From Eledone cirrhosa (lineage: Eukaryota): a stretch of DNA of 64,000 bases. Below are positions 2,125-64,000 of this stretch, piece after piece (within the stretch, counting starts at the first letter, position 1; each line of letters starts with the position of its first letter). A program made the translations under genes and the position numbers. Below the pieces are notes generated by a model. That model had not been told where the DNA came from, made no database searches, and saw nothing but the letters and a program-made list of their open reading frames with translations. The DNA is taken from contig OZ024745.1 in the NCBI GenBank assembly GCA_964016885.1, forward strand, positions 34,100,001-34,164,000. Direction: 5' to 3'.

Positions 2125-2125
<1 letters not shown>

Positions 2126-2283
2126 GTTATTCCGGGTTGAATCGGAGGTAACCACAGTAAGTAAGGTACTCAATACATAGCAGAGTATAAAAGTTTTAAT
2201 ATAGATGATATTCTACAGGACTAGAACTGTTTCATTCTTTTGATTTCTAAAGAATGAAACAGTTCTAGTCCTGTAGAATCTCA

Positions 2284-2290
<7 letters not shown>
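2125..2290. mobile_element. Mini head-to-head palindrome, PLE-type family A, in (TA)n
   Basis: Arms 2199-2240 / 2249-2290; near identical to 55652-55829 but with a different inversion junction (hammerhead core truncated). Confidence 0.75.
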
Positions 2291-2819: not shown

Positions 2820-3065
2820 AGCGGTCTCTGACCCCATCATCGCTGCCATGTCCTGCGTCTCCAAGAGACCAGTGTCTGTCTTTAGGGCATCAACATATGT
2901 CAACCTCCGTTTCCCTCTTCTAGTGTGTCCATGCAGGGGATCCCACAGGAGCACTGAGTGCAGTGTCAACTCTGGATGTCGGTGAGCATGTCCAGCTAAC
3001 CTCAGTCTCCTCTGTGCTACCTTCGAGCTGACTTTTAGGAGGCTCCCGCACAACTCTGAGTTCTG
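2820..3065 (-). pseudogene. RTE-clade LINE extreme C-terminus, inverted relative to 3070-3620
   Basis: NSELCGSL.KVS.KV..RRLRLAGH..RHPE....VLLWDP.HG..RRG...LTYVD.L..DTG. Confidence 0.88.
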
Positions 3066-3069
3066 GAGA

Positions 3070-3620
3070 AACACCAGGACGCTGGCTTTGCTGTAACACT
3101 GGCTCAGAGAAGGAGAGTTAAGGCGAAAAAGATATCGGATGCTGAATTTGCCGACGACATAGTTCTGGTGACAAACACAGTGAAGGAGGCAGAGGAGTTG
3201 ATGCAGGAGGTAGAGACTGTGTCGATGAGTGTGGGGCTGAGTATGAATGAGATTAAGATGAAGTATCTGATAGAGAACATTAAGAAGGCAGAGAAGATTA
3301 CTAATGTAGGCGGGAAGCCGCTAGAATTGGTTGAGGACTTCCTGTATCTGGGAGCAAAGATTGGGAATACAGAAGATGATGTGGTCGAGAGGAAGAGCAA
3401 AACCTGGACGGCGTGCCACAGTTTGAGATCAATGTGGAAGTCCGACCTTCGTAAATACCTGAAGATCCGTCTCTTCGTTGATGTAGTGGAGTCTGTGCTG
3501 TTATATGGGTCTGAGACTTGGACACTAACCAAGACTCTCACCCAGATGGTGGATGGGTGCTACACGAGAATGCTGAGGATGGCTCTGAACATTAATCAGT
3601 ATACACTGAGGATGAAGAAC
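3070..3620 (+). pseudogene. RTE-clade LINE RT C-terminal fragment
   Basis: AEFADDIVL, GLSMNEIK, VEDFLYLG, SVLLYGSETWTL, YTRMLRMALN. Confidence 0.9.
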
Positions 3621-3642
3621 AGATGGCAACAGGCAGATAATC

Positions 3643-3703
<61 letters not shown>

Positions 3704-5547: not shown

Positions 5548-5878
5548 TGTGTATATATAATCGTAGAACAGTGGGTGAGTATATCCGAAGTAGTAGACCA
5601 CTCAGTGCATGGGGCGAGTTAGGTAAATGTAGTTCCACAACAGTTAGTTCACCCTATTCTGATCAGCGACCTGATGATCCGAATAACTAGTAACAATTGT
5701 TCCCGGAAATGTTGTGGAACTACTTCCTATATATATATATACATATATATAGGAAGTAGCTGATCAGAATAGGGTGAAGTAACTGTTGTGGAACTACATT
5801 TACCTAACTCGCCCCATGGACTGAGTGCTCTACTACTACGAATATACTCCCCCACTGTTCTACGATTATATATACACA

Positions 5879-9965: not shown

Positions 9966-10588
9966 GATGTGTAATCCCGACCGCTGGGCCATGGTTTCGG
10001 CTTGTGTGTTCAACAATCCTTTTCAATGCTGTACAATTTTTGCAGGGTGTGCAGAAATAGCTGGACTGATGGAGAAAGTGTGTGTGGTGAGGCCAGAGAA
10101 TGGCAAGTGTATCTAGACAGGCTAGGTGTCAGGAGAAGGAAGCAATATTGGTGGGGGCAGGTGTGGTTAGGGGATAAGAGTGGAGTAGGGAGAGGAAGGG
10201 TGTAATAGTCATAGGAATAGAGGGTGCAGGCGTGAGGAGTAAGCCTATGTAAAGACAAGGCTTAGAAGTTGAAGGAGAAATTTTGAGAAGATAATTAAAT
10301 AAAGTGGGTTATATGTTGAAAACATAAGCCAAGACCACGGGAGTTTACCTGCTTTTATACCCACTCTGCATCTTTTCATGCATTGAGTACTCCCATGATT
10401 AGTGGTCTCCCTAGTCTCAACATCGCAGACTCTCTCTCTCCCTCCCTCTCTCTGTCTCTCTCTCTATATATATATATGTGTGTGGGTGTGCGTGCGTGTG
10501 TGCGCGGGTGTGTATATACTATAAGTATATGTATATCATAATTATATAAATATACATGCATATTATATATATATATATATATATATAA

Positions 10589-10778
10589 ATAATTGTTTCT
10601 ACTTTAGGCACAAGGCCAGCAATTACTCAGTGCATTACTGGTACTTTATTTTATCGACGCCGTAAGAATGAAAGGCAAAGTCAACCTCGGCGGGATTTGA
10701 ACTCAGATCGTAAAGGGACGTAACTATGCTGGAAAGCATGGCGTCCGACCCTCTACCGATACTGCCAATCCACCACCC
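10589..10778 (-). mobile_element. tRNA-derived SINE with Nin-type domain
   Basis: GAGTTCAAATCCCGCC B-box plus GCCTTTCAT..TTACGG.GTCGATAAAATAAAGTACCAG core; multi-copy in the window. Confidence 0.88.
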
Positions 10779-10915
10779 TATATATATATAATGTTATATA
10801 ATATACGTGTATATTTATACAAATATATATATATATATATATAACGTAAGAAATGTGGTAAGGAACCATAACGCACCAAAGTACTCAATACTTAGGGTAG
10901 TAGAGTGGGTAATAG

Positions 10916-11017
10916 AGAAACCGGTTATATTACACCATATAAGTTAGTTCAACAAATTCATACATGTATACATAGGTGTATACATTCATTCATACATACA
11001 TATTTTCATGTGTGACC

Positions 11018-11094
<77 letters not shown>

Positions 11095-11196
11095 AACGAG
11101 TAGGACCCCGACGGCTGAGCTCAAGCCGTTTCGACGGCTAATTCCAGAATTAGCCGTCGAAGCGGCTTGAGCTCAGCCGTCGGGGTCCTACTCGTT

Positions 11197-11234
<38 letters not shown>

Positions 11235-11351
11235 CGTGTGTGTGTGTGCGGTCACACATGAAAATATGTATGTATGAATGAATGTATACACCTATGTATA
11301 CATGTATGAATTTGTTGAACTAACTTATATGGTGTAATATAACCGGTTTCT
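10916..11351. repeat. ~436-bp near-perfect palindrome with 2-nt spacer, spanning microsatellites
   Basis: Centre AATTC-CA-GAATT at 11140-11151; arms mirror through (TA)n and (CA)n/(TG)n out to AGAAACCGGTT / AACCGGTTTCT. Confidence 0.95.
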
Positions 11352-11413
11352 TTATGTAAATAAACATATTTATCTCTATCTCATTCACTCTCATGTACAC
11401 ACACACACTTCTC

Positions 11414-17929: not shown

Positions 17930-20032
17930 GGGAGGTGATGGACTTTAGGTCTTACCTCGATGGCATACCACGACTTTCGAGCACGGATGCAGGAGCTCCG
18001 AAAGGCCGATCACAGCGGGCGAAATAGAAGATGCCCTAGGCCGCTGCGGGAAACGCAAATCACCCGGTTTAGATGGTCTACCATATGAGTTTTACATAAG
18101 CATGTCAGACTTGTTCTCTGGCGTCCTCGAAGCGGTCTACTGCAATTGGCAACAGAACGGGAGGGTTTCCAGTTATGTAGGCAGAGGCGTAGTAACACTG
18201 ATCAGGAAAGATGAGAACAAGGGGGATGAGATAAGCAATTTCAGGCCCATAACTATGCTCAACACAGAGTTAAATATTTTGGCCAAGGGGTTAGCAGCGA
18301 GGCTGGCGCTTGTCGTCGAGAACCTGGTAGAGGAAGCGCAAACGTGTGTAATCCCAACCAGGTCCATACACGACAACCTCACCCCGTGCGACACATCATA
18401 TAAGGTTAGGGTGTAAACCTGGCTTCGGTGGGGCTCTGATCAATTTAGATCAGTCTAAAGCAGTCGACCATCAATACTTGGAAGCGGTTCTCAGGGCAGT
18501 CGGCTTCGGTCCCGTCTTCAGAGGCTGGGTCGCTGCCATGCACACCAGCATCTGCTCGGCAGTCATGGTGAATGGTTACCTATCGGAGCCATTCCAAATC
18601 ATGCGTTCCATCCGTCAGGGGTGCCTTCTCTCCTCCATTCTGTATGTACTGACTCTCGAGCCATTACTGCGGGAGTTTGAGCTGTTGCAGGGCATCCCGA
18701 TCGAACCAGGACTGTGGAAAGCAGCGTCGGCCTATGCCGACGACATAACCGTAACGGTATCGAAAACCTCGGACATCGGGGTAATCGGCAACCTATTACA
18801 GGAATACGAAACGTTGACACGAGCAAGACTAAACCCAAACAAGTCTGTCGGTTTGCAACTCGGCACATGGAGAGGCAAACCCATGCCTTCCGACAGTGTC
18901 GTTGGACGCTGGATGGAAGGACCCGTGAAATTGCTCGGGGTCTGGTTTGGTCCAGATCTCCAGGTGGACAAGAACTGGAACGAGGTCACGGCGAAGGTGT
19001 TTGCACTCACCCAGAACTGAGCTGAGTGCAAACTCTCCTTGAAAGGTCGAGCGGAGGTGGCGAACACTTACATAGCGTCCGTCATCTACTTCCACTTGAC
19101 AGTTGTGCCTTGTCCCCGCGAATACCTCACCAAAATGAACGCCTACTCTTCAAGTTCCTCTGGAAGAAACAGGCTCCATTGGTGAGGAGATCCATCACCT
19201 GTCAACACCCTTCGAACAGAGGGCTGGGCATGCCGTGGCTAATGATGCGCAAACACGCGCTGAGGCTACGCCATCGCCAGTTATTCCTGATCGGCGAACC
19301 GGTGTGGTTGTCGTTTGTGAGACGAGCTCTTCCACAACTCCCCTCACTAACAGAGCTGCAGTCCTGGGTCAAGCGAAGACCGAAACTGGGCACCTGGCAC
19401 CTCGATTGCCTTCAGGCGCCCACAGCTCCTCACCAAGCGGAAACGGCAACCAGCGGAGACTCCACTTCGATATTCTATAGGGGATTAGTGGAGGATAAGT
19501 ACGACGACGTTTTCGAGGAAACTCTAGGCATCGAGGAAGATGAACTGACCAGTCTGTTCGGGAGGACTTTCTGTCCAGGGCCTATGGATAACTTCCAGAG
19601 GTCTCTGGCCTGGCAGTGCTACCGAGAAGCTCTACCATTTCGAGACAAAATATACAGGCACAGACGCCCTGGCAGAGATCCTGCCAAAAGGACCTGTCCA
19701 AGATGCGAGCAGGACATCGAAACCGTTCTGCACGCAATTGTTCAGTGCCCAAGGTTGACCGACCTGTGGAATTATGTCGAACAGCTACTGTCACGTGTAG
19801 GACGCATCCAGTTATCAGCCGAGTCCGCAGCCTTCATTTAAGATTAAAGGAGAGGCGGTCTTCCTCTGTTTGGTGGCTATGGCGAAAGTGGTAATATGGT
19901 GGACGAGGTTAAAAGGACTGAGGACAAACACCTTGCTCTCCGGACAACTCCTCATCCCCTTCTTTAAGTACCACTTCAGAAGGAAGGTGAGAGTGGAGAG
20001 AGATGTGTTACACCTTTCAGCGGAAGTGGGCT
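17930..20032 (+). pseudogene. Tx1/L1-clade LINE ORF2 (RT plus CCHC), 5'-truncated and frameshifted
   Basis: KSPGLDGLPYEFY, NFRPITMLNTE, DQSKA, IRQGCLLS, AYADDI, VKLLGVWF, GLGMP, CPRC..DIETVLHAIVQC. Confidence 0.92.
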
Positions 20033-20144: not shown

Positions 20145-20218
20145 AAGATGCCTATACTCTGCCAATATATTGAGTGCTTTTTTATTTGTGGTTACTTCCC
20201 GACACAACACGGGAATCT
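20145..20218 (+). mobile_element. Diverged family-A 3' tail between (TA)n tracts
   Basis: TATACTCTGC..TATTGAGTGC..TGTGGTTAC..CCGA..CAAC..GGAAT aligns by eye to the reverse complement of 2125-2190. Confidence 0.6.
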
Positions 20219-25473: not shown

Positions 25474-26394
25474 CGTGGGAAAGTAGAAATCGGAGAATAG
25501 ACCGTTAAAACATGTCTATTTAAAATATCACCTACGTACGTTTCGCTCAGTTGGGCTTCTCAAGGGCATAAATAATCACAAGTGTTCCTTATATAGTTCG
25601 GAAAGAGTTTTGGGGGTTAAATCAACATCAAGATTCATTGCTCGCAAAAATATCTTGTTTTGATTTTGCAGCAGGTCAAGGGACGTAACTCTGGCCGGTG
25701 TTAGGGCAGTCTTTCCCGGATAATTTTTTTTTTTTTTTTTTGCCGCATCCGTTTGTCCGAGGCTGGGTCTGGTTTTTAAGGATTGTTTTCTGGGTGTTAT
25801 TTTGCTGCGCCTGCCCGCCGGGGTGTTAAGACTTGTTGCAGGGAGATCCAGTGTACTATTTCACTCTTCATTCTTAACCCATCTAAAGAAGGATATTTTT
25901 AAGCGATGTGTACAACTTATCGCTGTTTCAGCTCTGCTGTTGATGAGCTCGTGGGATGCAGTTATGATGTGGTAGAGCTCCATGAGGCAAAGATCGCATT
26001 TCCTCTTGAAGTTGTACGGTGCAGCCCGGCCGACAATCTCCCAGTGCGTGGAGAAGCTGATGTTTAAGTCCTTTAGTGATGTGATGTAGTCCGCGAGCGA
26101 AGTGGAGTGCCTTAGTTTTCTATTTGTGAAAGAGTGGAGATCTGTTCGAAACCTAATTTTGAACGGGCCGGAGGTGGCCCCTATATAATGTTTAACGCTA
26201 TTGTGGCTAGTAATAGTGCATCTATATATAATCCTATCAGTCAAGCAGTATCCTCTAAGGGGCAGCGTCCTCTGTCGAGGCAGTTGCAATTTCTGTGGCG
26301 GTTCCGTCTATTTCCCACGGTAAGGCTATCATTGTTGCTGCCTACGTTGTTACCTACGCTACCGCAGCTGTCGTTAGCACAATTACAACCCACA

Positions 26395-36668: not shown

Positions 36669-38009
<1,341 letters not shown>

Positions 38010-42912: not shown

Positions 42913-43101
42913 GATAATTGTTTCTACTTTAGGCACAAGGCCAGCAATTACTCAGTGCATTACTGGTACTTTATTTTATCGACCCCGTAAGGATGAAAGG
43001 CAAAGTCAACCTCGGCGGGATTTGAACTCAGACCGTAAAGGGACGTAACTATGCTGGAAAGCATGGCGTCCGACTCTCTACCGATACTGTCAATCCAACT
43101 A
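42913..43101 (-). mobile_element. Full-length Nin-type SINE with 18-bp TSD
   Basis: GAATACATTCATGATAAT at 42901-42918 and 43104-43121. Confidence 0.9.
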
Positions 43102-43753: not shown

Positions 43754-43855
<102 letters not shown>

Positions 43856-43986
43856 TGGAAAGTTATATTTAAATTGTTGTGTTACAACTAGTAAATATTT
43901 ATAACTGATATAAAAGCACTCGACAAATATTTGGAGTATATTTACAATATTAAATAAATGGAAACTATATTTATAAAACCATATTT

Positions 43987-44050
43987 ATTTCATTATATAT
44001 ATTTCAGGGATAACATATTAACAATATGCTATGCCTTCCTCAGACAAAAT
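43987..44050 (-). ncRNA. Type I hammerhead ribozyme (mirror copy in left arm)
   Basis: Reverse complement of 50961-51024. Confidence 0.85.
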
Positions 44051-45451
44051 ACAATATAAACAGTTTTATAGATAAATAGATTCGACATACCGTAACAACA
44101 TCTACTTGCATTTGAGAAGGTTGATTTGGTTGTGACAAAATTGTACACAGAGAGAAAGAAAGAGAGAGAGAAAGAGAGAAAAAAGAGAGAAAAAAAGGAA
44201 AGAAAGACAGAAAACGAAGAAAAAGAAAAAGAAGAAATGCATGGAACAAAATAGAGAGATGGAAAGATAGATAAAGAGAAGAACTTCATGTAAAGAAACA
44301 GAAAGATATATATATATATATAGAGAGAGAGAGGAAATAGAGATAGATACATATATAGAAAGCTAGGTAGTGGGACAACTGTTGAATAACGTATCAATGA
44401 TACATTTATTTATTTATTTATTTAGCTCTAGTATTAATGTAAGGGAGATATATGGACGGAAAATCAGCTGTTATATAGGGAGAGAAAAAATATAGAGAGA
44501 GAAAAAAGAGATAGAGAAAATTCAAAAATATCCAGACACAGGCGAGGCGTACAACCTCTGTTTTAATGTAGAGGTCTTAGTATTTACAAAACCAGCCTCT
44601 GCATTGTAAATATCAGTATTCCTGGATGAGATATGTATCCACAATGTGTGAAAATGAATGATCTTATGTTTAGTTTTTTAAAGAATTCATATGTTTATGT
44701 GATAATTACAAACATCTATGTGAATGTACATGATCAATTCTGCAAACCCTAAGTTCACGGAAAGTATTCTCAATGCGGTATAAAAATTTAAGTATACATA
44801 TATGTGTATATAGAGTCAATATTACTATTTCTGTCTCTACTCTACAAGATTATCTATCAAGCAGAGATAGAGCAGATTTCAATATACTAATAAAAATAAA
44901 AATAAAAATAAAAATATAAATAAAAATATATCGGAAACAAAACTAAACTAAAAATAACAATAATAATAATAAGTAATAATAAAATAGAAAACTAAGAAAT
45001 ATTACGAAAAAATATTACATATTAAAAATATTACATATTAAAAAATTTACATATTAAAAATATTAAAAATAAAAAATAAAAATTAGGAAATACTACAGTA
45101 ATAAAAATAAAATAAACCACAAAGATCAACCCTTCAAAATTAATTGACAATATATTGCCAAGTTCATTATAAACATCAGAGTCGAAAAACAGATAAAGCC
45201 AAAATATTATCTATCAAATCGCATCTAGCAAAGATCATTTCAAAAAGTATAGGATGCCCAATTTGGTCTACATGTGTTCTTATATTTAATATAGAAGTTT
45301 ATCTAGTGTAACGTTTATTCGAAATATTTGGAGCATCAGCTTTTAGGATAGCTTAATTTTTCATGAAGAATGTTTAAAAAAAAAAAAAAAAAAAAAAGTA
45401 AAAAGATTTATCGGCTAGTTTCCCATATAATTATAAATCAAACTAAATATA

Positions 45452-47659
45452 CTACATTTTAAATTTAAATTTATATTTAAACGTTGAGTTTAATCTATGT
45501 TTGCAACAACTGAATAAATTTGTCCGTAGATTAAGGGAATTTTTAGATTTTAGTATAAAGAATATCTCCTCTGCGCAGAGGTCACATGTCTCAGAGGATG
45601 AATTAAAAGGAATCCCTCTTGAGACTATATTCCAAGCCGTCGAATATCTAACGTTATCTAGCTTAAGTTGCCATAGTACGCCTGAAAGTGCCGTTGAAGA
45701 TTTTTTTACTTGGATCTGTGAAAGAATTCTTGTGGTTATTATAGCGAAGTTTAAATTCCGTCGATGTGGAACCGACGTAGTTAAAAGAATTAGAGTCAGT
45801 ATTAACATTACAATTGTATATTATATTTTTAACTAAGCAGTTGTTATTTAACGGACATTTAGATCTATCTCTACAGTTACATTTGTTAACTTGTATATTA
45901 TTTATGCTGTTATCACTAGGTTTTAAGTTCCTATTATTTATTCTATTGATATTTTGTGCTAAATTTTTGGTGGATGAGTAGGTTAATTTAATTGTATGTC
46001 TATTGAAAATTGAGTGATATCTATGTGTTCTAGGGAAGCGATTATCAAGAGCTTTAAAAAATAGTTTAGCGATATGGGTTTTAATGTTTAGTGAGAAGGG
46101 GGGGGGGGGGGGGCAAACCAAATTATGTTCCTAGTTCTATTTCTTTTTTGGCCTTTGGAATTATTGTAATGCTTTCTATTATAGTTGTTAAGGATGTTGC
46201 CGTAATTAAAAAAGTTGTTACTTTGTTTAGTTTGTCTATCATTATCTATGTACACAATCTTATCAGCATATCCTGCTCTAGCTAATGCTTCATTGTAGTA
46301 TTGGGCTTTTTCGTCGAAAATCTTTCTATTCGACGAGATCCTAGAGATACGTTTTTGGACAGAGTTTACTATAGTGTTTTTGACAGATCTGGGGTGGTTA
46401 GAGTTAAAGTTTACATAGTTTAAGTTTTCATTCAACTTGTGAAAAGGATAGTGAAGACATGTGTTGAGATTTAATGTTATATCTAGGAAATTGACTATTC
46501 TATGGTTGTTTTCAATTTCTATTTTAAGATTAAAGTAATTAAAAAATTGTGTAATTTGTTTACATTTTCTATTTAGTTCAGAGTTATTATTATCAATAAG
46601 TAAAAGCATGTCGTCTCTATATAAACCTCCGGTAGTACCGGGTATTTTCCTATGTAGCGAATTGATTAAAAATAAACCCACAAGGTCAGTTACCTGGGCT
46701 GAGTCGGATGATCCCATAGTAATGTCAAAATTGCTATCTCTATCTGCTCTGGTTCATAGTTAGTCATTAAATTCTATCAAAGTTTTCCTAGCCGATAATA
46801 TAATATGCATTTCATTGCTAGTTAGGTCAGTATGTTTGAATGCGTAATTTAGTGCCTTATTTAGTAGATTAGGGGTAATAGAAGAATAATAGTTAGCTAT
46901 ATCAAGTTGAATAAACTTATTATTATTGTTATATTTAATTTGCTTAAACCACTCAACGACTTCTCCAGTTCCCTTCCACAAGCTCAGGTTAGATAAACAA
47001 TCCAAGTTCTTAATTTGCTGTATCACCCTGTCAAGAATGTTTTTGCTTAATTTGCCCAGGTCCGATTTTGATGGTGCGATCAATCTAACTGGCAGGTCAT
47101 TTTCAAAATTCCGCTTGTGATCTTTCATATTGATCTTCGGTTTCCTGGGCACGAAAGGTTGTGTTCTGTTCTCAATTTCCAACTCGTGCATTATACAAGA
47201 TGCTTCAACATTCATTTTCTCAAGCTCGGCCTTATCTGCTACCTTGTACTTTTTCCTCAGCTCTTTCAGTATGAGGCCATTATACATGTCTTTCTGCACT
47301 CCATAGAGGTTGTTGGTCTTGTCAGATTTCACCAAGATCTTCTCAGTTTTCTCTAAGCTCTCAATGTTATCCTTAATGCCTTTCAGATATTCCTGGCCTT
47401 TGAAGTTTCTCTTGAATTTGACCCCTTGTATGATAGAAATTATATCGTTTTCAAAGTCAGATAAAAGTTTGTTAGGGGGTGGATTTCTTTTAGATTTGAA
47501 AACTTTGTTTAAGTCCGAGACATTTTCGTCTGTATTAGATTTATCAAAGTGGAATGCTCGCCACCTGATTCTCCTTATAAAAGAGTCAGATTTATCTATT
47601 AATTGTTTTATAAAGTCTTTGTTTCTAGGTAGAGGTATGTCTTTTAGAGGTATGTCTTT
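45452..47659 (-). pseudogene. Disrupted PLE RT-GIY-YIG ORF (left copy)
   Basis: ORF pieces 46760-47335, 46088-46717, 45663-46121, 45452-45808. In-frame TAA and TGA (F-N-D-*-L-*-T-R), frameshift at G16 run (~46098-46113) and at T7 run (~45701). Confidence 0.9.
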
Positions 47660-47670
47660 TAAAGAAGATC

Positions 47671-49549
47671 TTGGTGAAATCTGACAAGACCAACAACCTC
47701 TATGGAGTGCAGAAAGACATGTATAATGGCCTCATACTGAAAGAGCTGAGGAAAAAGTACAAGGTAGCAGATAAGGCCGAGCTTGAGAAAATGAATGTTG
47801 AAGCATCTTGTATAATGCACGAGTTGGAAATTGAGAACAGAACACAACCTTTCGTGCCCAGGAAACCGAAGATCAATATGAAAGATCACAAGCGGAATTT
47901 TGAAAATGACCTGCCAGTTAGATTGATCGCACCATCAAAATCGGACCTGGGCAAATTAAGCAAAAACATTCTTGACAGGGTGATACAGCAAATTAAGAAC
48001 TTGGATTGTTTATCTAACCTGAGCTTGTGGAAGGGAACTGGAGAAGTCGTTGAGTGGTTTAAGCAAATTAAATATAACAATAATAATAAGTTTATTCAAC
48101 TTGATATAGCTAACTATTATTCTTCTATTACCCCTAATCTACTAAATAAGGCACTAAATTACGCATTCAAACATACTGACCTAACTAGCAATGAAATGCA
48201 TATTATATTATCGGCTAGGAAAACTTTGATAGAATTTAATGACTAACTATGAACCAGAGCAGATAGAGATAGCAATTTTGACATTACTATGGGATCATCC
48301 GACTCAGCCCAGGTAACTGACCTTGTGGGTTTATTTTTAATCAATTCGCTACATAGGAAAATACCCGGTACTACCGGAGGTTTATATAGAGACGACATGC
48401 TTTTACTTATTGATAATAATAACTCTGAACTAAATAGAAAATGTAAACAAATTACACAATTTTTTAATTACTTTAATCTTAAAATAGAAATTGAAAACAA
48501 CCATAGAATAGTCAATTTCCTAGATATAACATTAAATCTCAACACATGTCTTCACTATCCTTTTCACAAGTTGAATGAAAACTTAAACTATGTAAACTTT
48601 AACTCTAACCACCCCAGATCTGTCAAAAACACTATAGTAAACTCTGTCCAAAAACGTATCTCTAGGATCTCGTCGAATAGAAAGATTTTCGACGAAAAAG
48701 CCCAATACTACAATGAAGCATTAGCTAGAGCAGGATATGCTGATAAGATTGTGTACATAGATAATGATAGACAAACTAAACAAAGTAACAACTTTTTTAA
48801 TTACGGCAACATCCTTAACAACTATAATAGAAAGCATTACAATAATTCCAAAGGCCAAAAAAGAAATAGAACTAGGAACATAATTTGGTTTGCCCCCCCC
48901 CCCTTCTCACTAAACATTAAAACCCACATCGCTAAACTATTTTTTAAAGCTCTTGATAATCGCTTCCCTAGAACACATAGATATCACTCAATTTTCAATA
49001 GACATACAATTAAATTAACCTACTCATCCACCAAAAATTTAGCACAAAATATCAATAGAATAAATAATAGGAACTTAAAACCTAGTGATAACAGCATAAA
49101 TAATATACAAGTTAACAAATGTAACTGTAGAGATAGATCTAAATGTCCGTTAAATAACAACTGCTTAGTTAAAAATATAATATACAATTGTAATGTTAAT
49201 ACTGACTCTAATTCTTTTAACTACGTCGGTTCCACATCGACGGAATTTAAACTTCGCTATAATAACCACAAGAATTCTTTCACAGATCCAAGTAAAAAAA
49301 TCTTCAACGGCACTTTCAGGCGTACTATGGCAACTTAAGCTAGATAACGTTAGATATTCGACGGCTTGGAATATAGTCTCAAGAGGGATTCCTTTTAATT
49401 CATCCTCTGAGACATGTGACCTCTGCGCAGAGGAGATATTCTTTATACTAAAATCTAAAAATTCCCTTAATCTACGGACAAATTTATTCAGTTGTTGCAA
49501 ACATAGATTAAACTCAACGTTTAAATATAAATTTAAATTTAAAATGTAG
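47671..49549 (+). pseudogene. Disrupted PLE RT-GIY-YIG ORF (right copy)
   Basis: ORFs 47671-48246, 48289-49338, 49193-49549; YRDD motif; same TAA/TGA stops (48244-48252) and same A7 frameshift (~49294-49300) as the left copy. Confidence 0.9.
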
Positions 49550-50960
49550 TATATTTAGTTTGATTTATAATTATATGGGAAACTAGCCGATAAATCTTTT
49601 TACTTTTTTTTTTTTTTTTTTTTTTAAACATTCTTCATGAAAAATTAAGCTATCCTAAAAGCTGATGCTCCAAATATTTCGAATAAACGTTACACTAGAT
49701 AAACTTCTATATTAAATATAAGAACACATGTAGACCAAATTGGGCATCCTATACTTTTTGAAATGATCTTTGCTAGATGCGATTTGATAGATAATATTTT
49801 GGCTTTATCTGTTTTTCGACTCTGATGTTTATAATGAACTTGGCAATATATTGTCAATTAATTTTGAAGGGTTGATCTTTGTGGTTTATTTTATTTTTAT
49901 TACTGTAGTATTTCCTAATTTTTATTTTTTATTTTTAATATTTTTAATATGTAAATTTTTTAATATGTAATATTTTTAATATGTAATATTTTTTCGTAAT
50001 ATTTCTTAGTTTTCTATTTTATTATTACTTATTATTATTATTGTTATTTTTAGTTTAGTTTTGTTTCCGATATATTTTTATTTATATTTTTATTTTTATT
50101 TTTATTTTTATTAGTATATTGAAATCTGCTCTATCTCTGCTTGATAGATAATCTTGTAGAGTAGAGACAGAAATAGTAATATTGACTCTATATACACATA
50201 TATGTATACTTAAATTTTTATACCGCATTGAGAATACTTTCCGTGAACTTAGGGTTTGCAGAATTGATCATGTACATTCACATAGATGTTTGTAATTATC
50301 ACATAAACATATGAATTCTTTAAAAAACTAAACATAAGATCATTCATTTTCACACATTGTGGATACATATCTCATTCAGGAATACTGATATTTACAATGC
50401 AGAGGCTGGTTTTGTAAATACTAAGACCTCTACATTAAAACAGAGGTTGTACGCCTCGCCTGTGTCTGGATATTTTTGAATTTTCTCTATCTCTTTTTTC
50501 TCTCTCTATATTTTTTCTCTCCCTATATAACAGCTGGTTTTCCCTCCATATATCTCCCTTACATTAATACTAGAGCTAAATAAATAAATAAATAAATAAA
50601 TGTATCATTGATACGTTATTCAACAGTTGTCCCACTACCTAGCTTTCTATATATGTATCTATCTCTATTCCCTCTCTCTCTCTCTATATATATATATCTC
50701 TTTCTGTTTCTTTACATGAAGTTCTTCTCTTTATCTATCTTTCCATCTCTCTATTTTGTTCCATGCATTTCTTCTTTTTCTTTTTCTTTTTCTTCGTTTT
50801 CTGTCTTTCTTTCCTTTTTTTCTCTCTTTTCTCTCTCTTTCTCTCTCTCTTTCTTTCTCTCTGTGTACAATTTTGTCACAATCAAATCAACCTTCTCAAA
50901 TGCAAGTAGATGTTGTTACGGTATGTCGAATCTATTTATCTATAAAACTGTTTATATTGT

Positions 50961-51024
50961 ATTTTGTCTGAGGAAGGCATAGCATATTGTTAATATGTTA
51001 TCCCTGAAATATATATAATGAAAT
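50961..51024 (+). ncRNA. Type I hammerhead ribozyme in PLE 3' end
   Basis: ATTTTGT-CTGAGGA-AGG[CATAGCATATT GTT AATATGTTATC]CCT-GAAA-TATATA-TA-ATGAAAT; stem I 7 bp with 2 GU, palindromic stem III, overlapping AATAAA. Confidence 0.85.
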
Positions 51025-51195
51025 AAATATGGTTTTATAAATATAGTTTCCATTTATTTAATATTGTATATATATATATATATATATAAACGGACAAAAT
51101 GAAACGAAATTTCATTTCCCACTCTTAGTACGGCTGTTACTTAAATATAAGTATGTACACGTACATATATGTATACAGACGTACAGTAGTACATA

Positions 51196-51856: not shown

Positions 51857-51896
<40 letters not shown>

Positions 51897-51963
51897 AACG
51901 TAAGATAAGAAAATTATAAAATTATAAAAAAAATTATAAAATTGACTTACTTACTAAAATATC

Positions 51964-52045
51964 ACTTCCAACTAATTAGTTTCTGGAATGGAGTAAATAT
52001 ATTTTCCGAAGAACATACAGAAAAGCATTCCGTCGTCAGGAAAGT
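51964..52045 (-). ncRNA. Type I hammerhead ribozyme, downstream repeat of retrozyme-like element
   Basis: ACTTTC-CTGACGA-C GGAATG...CATTCC A-GAAA-CTAATTAG-TT-GGAAGT; stem I 6 bp, long stem II, palindromic stem III. Confidence 0.85.
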
Positions 52046-52505
52046 CTCTTTTCATGTAAGTTTCCAGGCATAGCGAGGACTCTGGAAACTTATTAAAGAA
52101 ATAATTCAGTGGAGAGGAAATAGCGAAGCGTGGACTGAAATCCTAGCCATTGAGAAAATCGCTGTCTCCACGTCCGTGGCAAATTCAAAAAGAATCAATC
52201 ACGTGACATCGAGGTCAATCAGTGGAAAGCGAGTTGTTAAAAAGACAGCGGCCTGCTTACTACTATAGCAGCAGTCATGGCCAATATTGCTCGACAAATG
52301 AATTGGAGATAATTATAAAGAATTTATATCTAGTAACATTTATATACATACAGATGCATATCAATGCTAGCAAATATATAGGTTTTGTCTTAGTAACGTT
52401 GTGGTTCAATGCATGGGGTTGCAGAACAATAATATGAGAGACGTAAGATAAGAAAATTATAAAATTATAAAAAAATTATAAAATTGGCTTACTTACTAAA
52501 ATATC

Positions 52506-52584
52506 ACTTCCAACTAATTAGTTTCTGGAATGGAGTAAATATATTTTCCGAAGAACATATGGAAAAGCATTCCGTCGTCAGGAA
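52506..52584 (-). ncRNA. Type I hammerhead ribozyme, upstream repeat of retrozyme-like element
   Basis: Same motif as 51964-52045, offset 542 nt; 5' stem I strand cut to TTC by adjacent (TA)n. Confidence 0.8.
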
Positions 52585-52651
52585 TATATATATATATCGT
52601 TTCTGAATTTGTTTAGCAAGATTCTTTATCTGAAAACGTGTGTTGAAACCG

Positions 52652-52872
52652 ATATTGTTATACTTTGGGAGGGTCATGTTGCCAATAAGAAATACACGCA
52701 CCAGTTGCTTTCACTTCAATTTATTATAAATTTGACAATATAAGAACAATCATCTGGTTGTGGAACCAACCAACCAACCAACCGGAAATTTATAAATTTA
52801 ATTTATAATAAATTGAAGTGAAAGCAACTGGTGCGTGTGTTTCTTATTGGCAACATGACCCTCCCAAAGTAT

Positions 52873-52880
<8 letters not shown>
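52652..52880. repeat. Head-to-head type palindrome in (TA)n with one-sided tail
   Basis: Arms 52652-52732 / 52800-52880 (1 mismatch); extra ~54 nt on the left before (TA)n. Confidence 0.92.
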
Positions 52881-55651: not shown

Positions 55652-55825
55652 CGTTATTCCGGGTTGAATCGGAGGTAACCACAGTAAGTAAGGTACTCAA
55701 TACATAGCAGAGTATAACAGTTTTAATATAGAAGAGATTCTACAGGACTAGAACTGTTTCATTAATTCCTGATGATTTCTAATGAATGAAACAGTTCTAG
55801 TCCTGTAGAATCTCATCTATATTAA

Positions 55826-55829
<4 letters not shown>
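55652..55829. mobile_element. Mini head-to-head palindrome, PLE-type family A, in (TA)n
   Basis: Arms 55719-55763 / 55785-55829; right copy carries the full hammerhead, left copy carries an extra ~67-nt tail. Confidence 0.78.
55765..55811 (+). ncRNA. Type I hammerhead ribozyme in mini-palindrome (family A)
   Basis: ATTC-CTGATGA-T TTC TAAT GAA T-GAAA-CAG TTCTAGTC CTG-TA-GAAT; all three stems can be drawn. Confidence 0.78.
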
Positions 55830-60153: not shown

Positions 60154-60609
60154 TGATCTCACCGCTGGCCTCTCTCTATGACGGGGCGGTAGTATTACAC
60201 TATAAGCCTACGCCCCTTCACCAGAAGGACATAAGAAGACTTAATAATCATCACTTGAGGGCGATTGACCGGGCTAGAAGCTGCTAAATGTTCGGCCACC
60301 CACATGTCTTTGTTTTTCAGCCCCATGGATTTTGTCCATTATATTCCTTTGTTATATTTCGAATACCTGATGATGTCACCGGATTCATACTGAACCCGGT
60401 CACTGAAATGATCATAGTATAATAAACCTTTTAAGGAATTACACCAGTCCGGACTCCTGTTATTTTATAATAATTAACTACGTACTCGCACCACCAACAA
60501 CACAAACGAAGACGGATGTGTTGCATTACGTCGAGTGCTCTCCATAATATTACATCGAGGTTGACCATACGGATGACCAGTTCTATCCAGTGGTGAACCA
60601 ACAAACCTG
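60154..60609 (+). mobile_element. 5'-truncated PLE-type 3' end inserted in (TA)n
   Basis: (TA)n on both sides; hammerhead, AATAAA and GTACTCG...CGAGTGC stem-loop in that order. Confidence 0.7.
60363..60420 (+). ncRNA. Type I hammerhead ribozyme
   Basis: ATAC-CTGATGA-TGTCACCGGATTCATACTGAACCCGGTCACT-GAAA-TGATCA-TA-GTAT, immediately followed by AATAAA. Confidence 0.85.
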
Positions 60610-63350: not shown

Positions 63351-64000
63351 GAGTACATAACTCGGCGTGGCTGAATTGCTAAGAAGACATGTGCCTCTTC
63401 CTTAGCTCGGTCCAAGGCTTGCCAGTGAAATTGGGTAGACAGAAATTGTGTGGAATCTCTTGACAAAGAGCCTCACTTGTCACATACTATCGTAAGCATG
63501 ATTTCGTGGTTAAGACGTTCACTTTATAATTATGGGATCTCGGGTTCGATTCCACTCCATTACATCTTGTACAAATGCCTTTAGTCTAGCCTCGGGTAGA
63601 CCCAAGTCTTGTAAGTGAAACTGCGGAGTCTGAAATTGTGTGGTAACTCGTCTGATAGATTGTACATTTAATTTGAACGTCGAGATTTATCATATATTGT
63701 GTCACATTGAATCTCAGTGAGAATTACGTTATGGTAGCGCGTGTCTATAGAATACTCAAAGTATTACACTTTAACTTACGAGGTGGTCGCTCAAAAGATG
63801 GTAAAACTAAAAGCTCACCGTCCAACCCGACGGAGGATCAATCACTCTATCGTTAATAGCAGAAGTTCAACTGATAGAAAATTTCTTCATGCAGGAAAGG
63901 TTTATGGCATGAGTCACTTCAATGAATATAAAAAAAAATCTTAAAACCATACATACACACTTACACACATCCACCAACTCTCCACAGTAATTCACACGCA

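Follow-up and report, generated by a model that had tools for sequence, protein, structure and literature searches.

Structured, bulged RNAs that recruit a reverse transcriptase (RT) and fix the start of copying are known from hepadnavirus epsilon, the 3' stem loops of stringent LINEs and SINEs, and the anchors of telomerase RNA. For Penelope-like elements (PLEs), the closest described systems are the Hydra clade and Poseidon. Hydra-clade elements (Craig et al. 2021, PMC8557442) are marked by RWK-like, DKT, and CxCx5C motifs, a GIY-YIG endonuclease at the C terminus, a hammerhead, (TA)n targets, and pLTRs in tandem or inverted arrangement. The PLE tail is described in PMC8557442 and PMC3846280; the former gives its length as 30-40 nt and ascribes it to endonuclease-mediated resolution. 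The sole in vitro study of a PLE, on Poseidon PAc (Frangieh et al. 2024, PMC11167929), reports in its text two start sites and no conserved signal. Irrespective of how long the template is on its 3' side, the PAc RT initiates internally at two sites that bound a 30-40 nt tail and lie inside one AC-rich stem loop within the ORF; RNA-seq read ends fall at these sites, both target strands are cut and extended in vitro, and the RT is predicted to dimerise (PMC11167929). The same paper cites the D. virilis endonuclease as needing the tail in DNA.

Here we analysed a 64,000-nt stretch of AT-rich animal DNA from Eledone cirrhosa, rich in microsatellites (the window), together with related loci from metagenomes. 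The elements resemble Poseidon PAc (PMC11167929) in their optional one-end extension, in having two ends interpreted as two initiation sites, in their AT-rich target, and in a stem loop. They differ in carrying a conserved bulged hairpin twice in the 5' UTR, with ends 5' of a copy and a tail of 54-86 nt, in dozens of families. With the described Hydra clade (PMC8557442) they share the protein motifs, domain order, hammerhead, (TA)n targets, and pLTR arrangements; the main text of that paper contains neither "hairpin" nor "stem-loop", and its consensi show the motif without comment.

A Hydra-clade element in a lopsided palindrome

On sequence criteria (domain order, motifs, hammerhead, and insertion in (TA)n), the element that forms a 7-kb palindrome in the window is a Hydra-clade PLE. 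In it, a long copy is joined to a second one that is inverted and 5'-truncated (Table 1). Translations of RT, linker, and endonuclease align with relatives throughout and contain RWR, DKT, and the CxCx5C linker CNCRDRSKC; the GIY-YIG endonuclease lies C-terminal to the RT in one ORF, which is broken in the window copy by stops and a frameshift. Intact ORFs of relatives have RW(K/R) and DK(T/S) in 28 of 28 cases and CxCx5C in 27 of 28. The sole named homologue of the palindrome protein is from Octopus bimaculoides (40% identity); Pfam gave no match to the RT and endonuclease translations, and no relatives were found among the viral contigs searched. A first, strict hammerhead descriptor had no match in the window, where hammerheads were located with a core pattern instead, and Rfam did not recognise those of this element.

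The arms (44404-50597) are ~99-100% identical and share two in-frame stops and one frameshift, which means that recent copying, in trans or in a second round, used a dead template.

The sequence-only reading had noticed that only the left arm carries a tail and that the right arm ends 4 nt before TACTC, and both observations are borne out. The 86 nt at 43857-43942 are unique to the long copy and are the known PLE tail, as that reading had supposed. Exact identity between the arms ends 5 nt before the ACTC (4 before TACTC) at 43937, and the TA run of the short copy matches the long arm up to 43937 when one mismatch is allowed. In the elements studied here, the tail measures 54-86 nt, is optional at one pLTR of a pair, and originates in the 5' portion of the tandem unit that follows.

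Table 1. Features located in the window (coordinates are window positions).
Feature	Coordinates	Strand	Description
Long copy of Hydra-clade PLE	43857..47662	-	near-complete; broken RT and C-terminal GIY-YIG ORF; 3' pLTR with tail; ends in (TA)n
Inverted, 5'-truncated short copy	47663..51068	+	short end 5 nt before hairpin 1, running into (TA)n
86-nt PLE tail, long copy only	43857..43942	-	arm comparison
Hairpin 1 of giant palindrome	43913..43937	-	ACUC / 3-4 bp upper stem / UC bulge / GAGU-GC-U-n-U; covariance model E 0.0035
Minimal type I hammerhead motif of pLTR, predicted	43986..44050	-	pattern match; core starts at 44043, 106 nt before hairpin 1
Hammerhead motif of short copy, predicted	50961..51025	+	pattern match; core starts at 50968
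Family-A mini palindrome	55652..55829		hairpin 55693-55713(-) and 62-nt tail on long arm; end of short arm 5 nt before hairpin; hammerhead core 55769(+)
Second family-A palindrome	2125..2290		hairpin 2166-2186(-); short arm stops 12 nt before hairpin (exception)
Third asymmetric palindrome	10844..11355		hairpin 10881-10906(-); other arm stops 5-9 nt before hairpin; top covariance-model match, E 0.00026
Non-coding mini element, partial tandem	51893..52600	-	hammerhead 52581; hairpin 1 52402-52427; hairpin 2 52287-52309; second hammerhead 52039; in (TA)n
Hairpin copy on short (TA)n-flanked stump	20156..20177	+	71 nt before (TA)n; model E 0.06
Hairpin copy, 5-bp upper stem and UU bulge	10363..10390	+	~67 nt before (CT)n run; weak in model, E 3.4
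Decayed hairpin copy	37551..37577	-	76 nt before (TA)n; descriptor only, not found by model; folds otherwise
Long variant hairpin	60483..60538	+	116 nt behind hammerhead core 60367; ~126 nt before (TA)n; closing pair non-canonical; missed by descriptor and model

The motif is a predicted bulged hairpin, usually present twice per element

The window motif had been read as a plain stem with a variable loop. The stem is real, but the predicted fold is a bulged hairpin of the form RCUC-Y...R-UH-GAGY-RCU-n-U, with a 4-bp stem, a 2-nt 3' bulge, a covarying upper stem, and a conserved ACU-n-U run behind it. A metagenome scan yielded 78 Hydra loci (best 80 of 502 confirmed), which form 56 families at 85% nucleotide identity. 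In these, hairpin 1 lies 73-125 nt behind the hammerhead, hairpin 2 another 54-83 nt on, and an ATG mostly 13-26 nt after that; hammerhead and hairpin are separate motifs of the same pLTR. Sequence of at least 200 nt before the ORF N-terminus was available for 32 families, of which 21 have two strict copies, nine have one, and two have none; with one mismatch allowed, hairpin 2 is present in 43 of the 56 families and both hairpins in 35. The motif had been thought to mark the end of the short arm; it does, but because it is present twice it marks both ends of the tail and not the short end only.

Enrichment in a larger set, which the sequence-only reading had proposed as a test, is clear: with one locus per family, 26.6 kb of UTR hold 90 sense and 2 antisense matches, compared with a single match over 176 kb of ORF and five over 73 kb of flank. 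GCUC/GAGC is the common form across Hydra loci, and mostly ACUC/GAGU is found in the organism of the window. The lower stem is nearly invariant in the metagenome set, other forms being ACUC/GAGU and GUUC/GAAC in the window and GCAC/GUGC in one locus (L085).

Inspection by eye of six published Hydra consensi (PMC8557442) showed a clear motif in Hydra-2_Amil, Hydra-2_Ajap, and Hydra-1_Ajap, a variant in two, and no clear copy in Hydra-1_Obim; the Hydra-1_Ajap consensus starts 2 nt before hairpin 1 and has both copies before its ATG. A search of the supplement of that paper with six 9-mers, in which line breaks can hide matches, gave seven matches, four in Hydra consensi and three within Naiad/Chlamys coding sequence.

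Two ideas about the origin and pairing of the motif were rejected. Recent duplication within a family does not account for the two hairpins, since hairpins 1 and 2 are no more alike within a family (0.215) than between families (0.192). General pairing with hammerhead stem III, suggested by ACUC-n-GAGU in several Hydra families, was dismissed because stem III of the window element differs.

Covariation and fold

Covariation, likewise proposed as a test, is seen in the closing pair of the upper stem, which is Watson-Crick in 71 of 75 copies (C-G 54, U-A 17; shuffle mean 46.1), and in 31 of 33 copies of hairpin 1 alone (16.0 in shuffles). Pair 2 of the upper stem is formed in 43 of 75 copies (mean 22.8) and pair 3 in 44 (19.0); pair 4 is not above chance. 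Placed on an RT tree of 31 families, hairpin 1 shows six swaps of its closing pair between C-G and U-A, at least three of them forced by strong branches. The 3' bulge is UU in 51 copies, UA in 12, and UC in 11, its first base being U in 74 of 75, and the U residues at +1 and +3 are kept in 73 and 74 of 75; the closing-pair, bulge, and U columns all lie outside the search pattern. A model-fitted alignment gave a pair score of 0.266 versus 0.088, which leans to the model and is not relied on.

Taken singly, most hairpins have weak predicted folds (z -0.5 to -2.3), and two fold otherwise. Counts of G-U versus A-C do not settle which strand folds. The 12 nt before both hairpins are U/A-rich. In Rfam, the motif reaches no family's gathering score (best 19.2 of 50 bits and 10.4 of 61), and a first scan gave only microsatellite and miRNA noise among the best 150 of 372 matches.

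Most inserted copies end just 5' of either hairpin

We classed 42 downstream pLTRs among the 78 loci; the others comprise 12 loci without an alignable reference and 24 without downstream DNA or a family reference. Thirteen pLTRs end before hairpin 2 and four before hairpin 1 (both at 0 to -6), a ratio biased by which references were long enough. Six end elsewhere (-9, -12, and four far off), 11 stop at the contig end, and eight read through into the next unit. A uniform spread of ends, the outcome that the sequence-only reading had named as counter-evidence, was not what we found: 17 of the 23 informative 3' ends (15 of 18 families) fall within two 10-nt windows (binomial P ~1e-11 to 1e-13 versus uniform ends; the -8 to +1 window was chosen after the first cases, and same-family copies are not independent). 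The ends track the hairpins and not the hammerhead cut site. As they lie just 5' of hairpin 1 or hairpin 2, the tail comprises hairpin 1 and the spacer that separates it from hairpin 2.

A held-out set of 14 loci, animal DNA in bacterial bins with families partly overlapping the first set, has ends at -4, -5, -5, -6, -6, -6, and -13 (six of seven at -4 to -6; all from one assembly). The two-hairpin layout recurs in three of its loci (L079, L088, and L085), and inverted pairs of a long and a short copy occur in L082 (two) and L086. Loci L079-L091 are animal Hydra retroelements with hammerheads inside bacterial genome bins, likely host contamination.

Ends in the window lie at -5, -5, -4, -5/-9, and -12 relative to the hairpin. 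Reads over 43840-44140 have (TA)n loose ends at 43937 in four of four runs from three organisms (27, 3, and 1 contigs; 4426 reads), with more junctions at ~43938-43948 and depth rising above 43939, so short ends are common in the window's family. Among the 24 of 317 loose ends listed, hairpin 2 was not seen behind the long end of this family, whose 5' UTR is absent from the window. Short ends also occur in direct, non-palindromic copies (L010, L026, L041, L066, and the mini element at 51893).

Two further copies, L041:980-3400 and L004:3015-5570, start and end near the same hairpin boundary in (TA)n, are of unit length, and have no pLTR. L041 runs from site 1 to site 1 and L004 from site 2 to site 2, a pattern compatible with a circular template or with copying halted by the next bound hairpin.

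Palindromes and hairpin copies across the window

Arms are lopsided in four of the five motif-bearing palindromes of the window. The short arm of the family-A palindrome at 55652 ends 4 nt before TACTC, as previously noted (5 before ACTC). The end reported near 10916, 8 nt before CACTC, holds by strict identity (9 nt before ACTC) and moves to 5 nt before ACTC with one mismatch. The fifth palindrome (5560-5866) is older, with 80% arm identity, and carries a variant hairpin and tail on both arms, which are both long; its middle contains a hammerhead core and a small inverted repeat centred on TA.

The second pLTR of the non-coding mini element has a short end, 4 nt before the hairpin-1 position. 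Its hairpin 1 is the variant GUUC/GAAC, which the covariance model misses; its hairpin 2 is matched at E 0.0016.

The loose pattern of the sequence-only reading has 13 matches in the window, a count that includes three self-palindromic sites counted on both strands, versus a mean of 2.1 and a maximum of 6 in 60 block-wise dinucleotide shuffles. The bulged descriptor has 7 (shuffle mean 2.2, maximum 5). A covariance model was trained on 13 sequences from outside the window and seeded with a same-length set, as MAFFT misaligned hairpins of unequal length. It ranks sites at 10877, 2162, 52283, 43912, 55689, and 20150 first, and these top six include five of the eight sites of that reading. The five further sites that it had listed are all present where it placed them, but the model is weak at 10362 and, at E<=5, does not find 37551, 60482, or the GUUC variant. 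Sites at 2429-2476 and 19003-19029, which match the loose pattern, were discarded as unrelated self-palindromes. A long near-perfect hairpin at 2380-2520, whose core starts with TACTC and ends with GAGTAC on both strands, resembles a fold-back element and seems unrelated, and a weak model match at 63744-63773(+) (E 0.23), with a different 3' half and no (TA)n nearby, is probably due to chance.

Several other repeats were observed. A (TA)n-flanked asymmetric palindrome at 52600-52880 has a ~52-nt tail and lacks both the RCUC/GAGY motif and a clear hammerhead core; it possibly belongs to another PLE clade with its own signal. A GC-rich near-perfect palindrome between two (TA)n runs (11093-11199) forms the centre of the one at 10844-11355. 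A 3' fragment of a second Hydra family (25474-26390(-)) lies between (TA)n arrays, encodes an endonuclease C-terminus with a degenerate hammerhead-like core, and apparently has a short end. Two copies of a ~180-nt SINE-like repeat (42925-43100 and 10590-10775) presumably resemble cephalopod SINEs, and decayed non-LTR retrotransposon RT fragments lie at 17949-19838(+) and 3060-3650(+), the latter with a weak RVT_1 match.

Proposed mechanism and alternatives

The positions of the ends make it probable, in our judgement, that each hairpin binds the RT and sets target-primed initiation directly 5' of it. A tandem transcript would be bound at a hairpin, the endonuclease would nick a (TA)n target, and the freed (TA)n 3' end would pair with the U/A-rich sequence immediately 5' of the hairpin and then be extended; because priming would occur 5' of the bound hairpin, that hairpin would not be copied. 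Priming at hairpin 1 would produce the short end and priming at hairpin 2 the long end, and if both were used, one on each strand of a single target, asymmetric head-to-head palindromes would result. In support of this model are the layout with two copies, the covarying pairs, the bias to the sense strand, and the clustering of ends 0-6 nt 5' of a hairpin. Counting against it are the 6 of 23 ends elsewhere, the palindrome with two long arms, the failure to see hairpin 2 behind the long end of the window's family among the loose ends listed, the weak single folds, the position of the PAc starts within a stem loop of the ORF and not 5' of a duplicated hairpin (PMC11167929), and the absence of a clear copy in Hydra-1_Obim. 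Two priming sites bounding the tail, already suggested by the sequence-only reading, have a counterpart in the two RT starts observed in vitro for Poseidon PAc (PMC11167929).

An alternative that we consider unlikely is that the hairpin signals RNA 3'-end formation, acting from just downstream of the cut as a terminator or nuclease site; two RNA ends would result, at which the RT would prime as LINEs do. In its favour, the motif is found 3' of the end and stays uncopied, it is biased to the sense strand, and its stem followed by A-C recalls the acceptor end of a tRNA. RNA-seq read ends at the PAc start sites (PMC11167929) agree with this, but PAc starts internally regardless of the 3' length of its template (PMC11167929), and 8 of the 42 classified copies read through both hairpins.

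It is rather improbable that the hairpins act on DNA, as a cDNA fold or endonuclease site at which an intermediate is cut or the second strand stops, so that ends would reflect resolution and not priming. The compensatory pairs and fixed bulge argue against duplex recognition, short ends also occur in the direct, non-palindromic copies, and the PAc start sites are already present in first-strand products (PMC11167929). In favour are the attribution of the tail to endonuclease-mediated resolution (PMC8557442), the D. virilis endonuclease requirement cited in PMC11167929, and the 5' junctions that also fall at hairpins (L041 and L004).

Ends might instead be set by annealing of nicked (TA)n to U/A-rich patches, with the hairpins serving transcription or translation and adjoining the patches by accident. 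The U/A-rich 12 nt before both hairpins, the TA microhomology at junctions, and the fixed distance of hairpin 2 from the ORF start (~22 nt before the ATG) would suit this idea, which is nevertheless very doubtful: the whole pLTR is AT-rich, yet ends pile up at two narrow places in many families, and both hairpins persist in a non-coding mini element. That a few repeat families resemble one another by chance, as the two discarded self-palindromes might suggest, has a negligible probability and is refuted by the 56 families, in which a signal at the tail boundary is shared as the sequence-only reading had inferred.

Returning to RT-bound hairpins, a further step that we put forward only tentatively is that an RT dimer grips both hairpins of one RNA and primes two cDNAs from two nicked (TA)n strands. 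The twin hairpin would then cause both the tail and the asymmetric palindromes, in a telomerase-like RNP in which a bulged anchor, not the RNA end, sets the template start. The Hydra motif differs from epsilon, the LINE stem loops, and telomerase RNA elements in being duplicated and in lying just 3' of an internal start, and no sequence likeness to these elements was found in Rfam.

Meaning for PLE biology

No description of the duplicated motif was found in the open literature on PLEs (e.g., PMC4209133, PMC7229834, bioRxiv 10.64898/2026.07.22.740005, and the text of PMC11167929). It is a duplicated and apparently undescribed cis element that belongs to a known PLE clade and explains both tail ends, with its function inferred. 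PLEs are the closest transposon relatives of the telomerase RT, and their choice of template start, their tails, and their lopsided palindromes have lacked an explanation. A duplicated motif of 20-35 nt in dozens of families from several animal groups provides mutational handles, as it can be deleted, swapped, moved, or compensated, and offers a minimal RNA for structure work. It also gives a simple rule for annotating the ends of Hydra elements and of their non-coding derivatives. If the dimer reading is true, the anchor could be moved to programme what is inserted.
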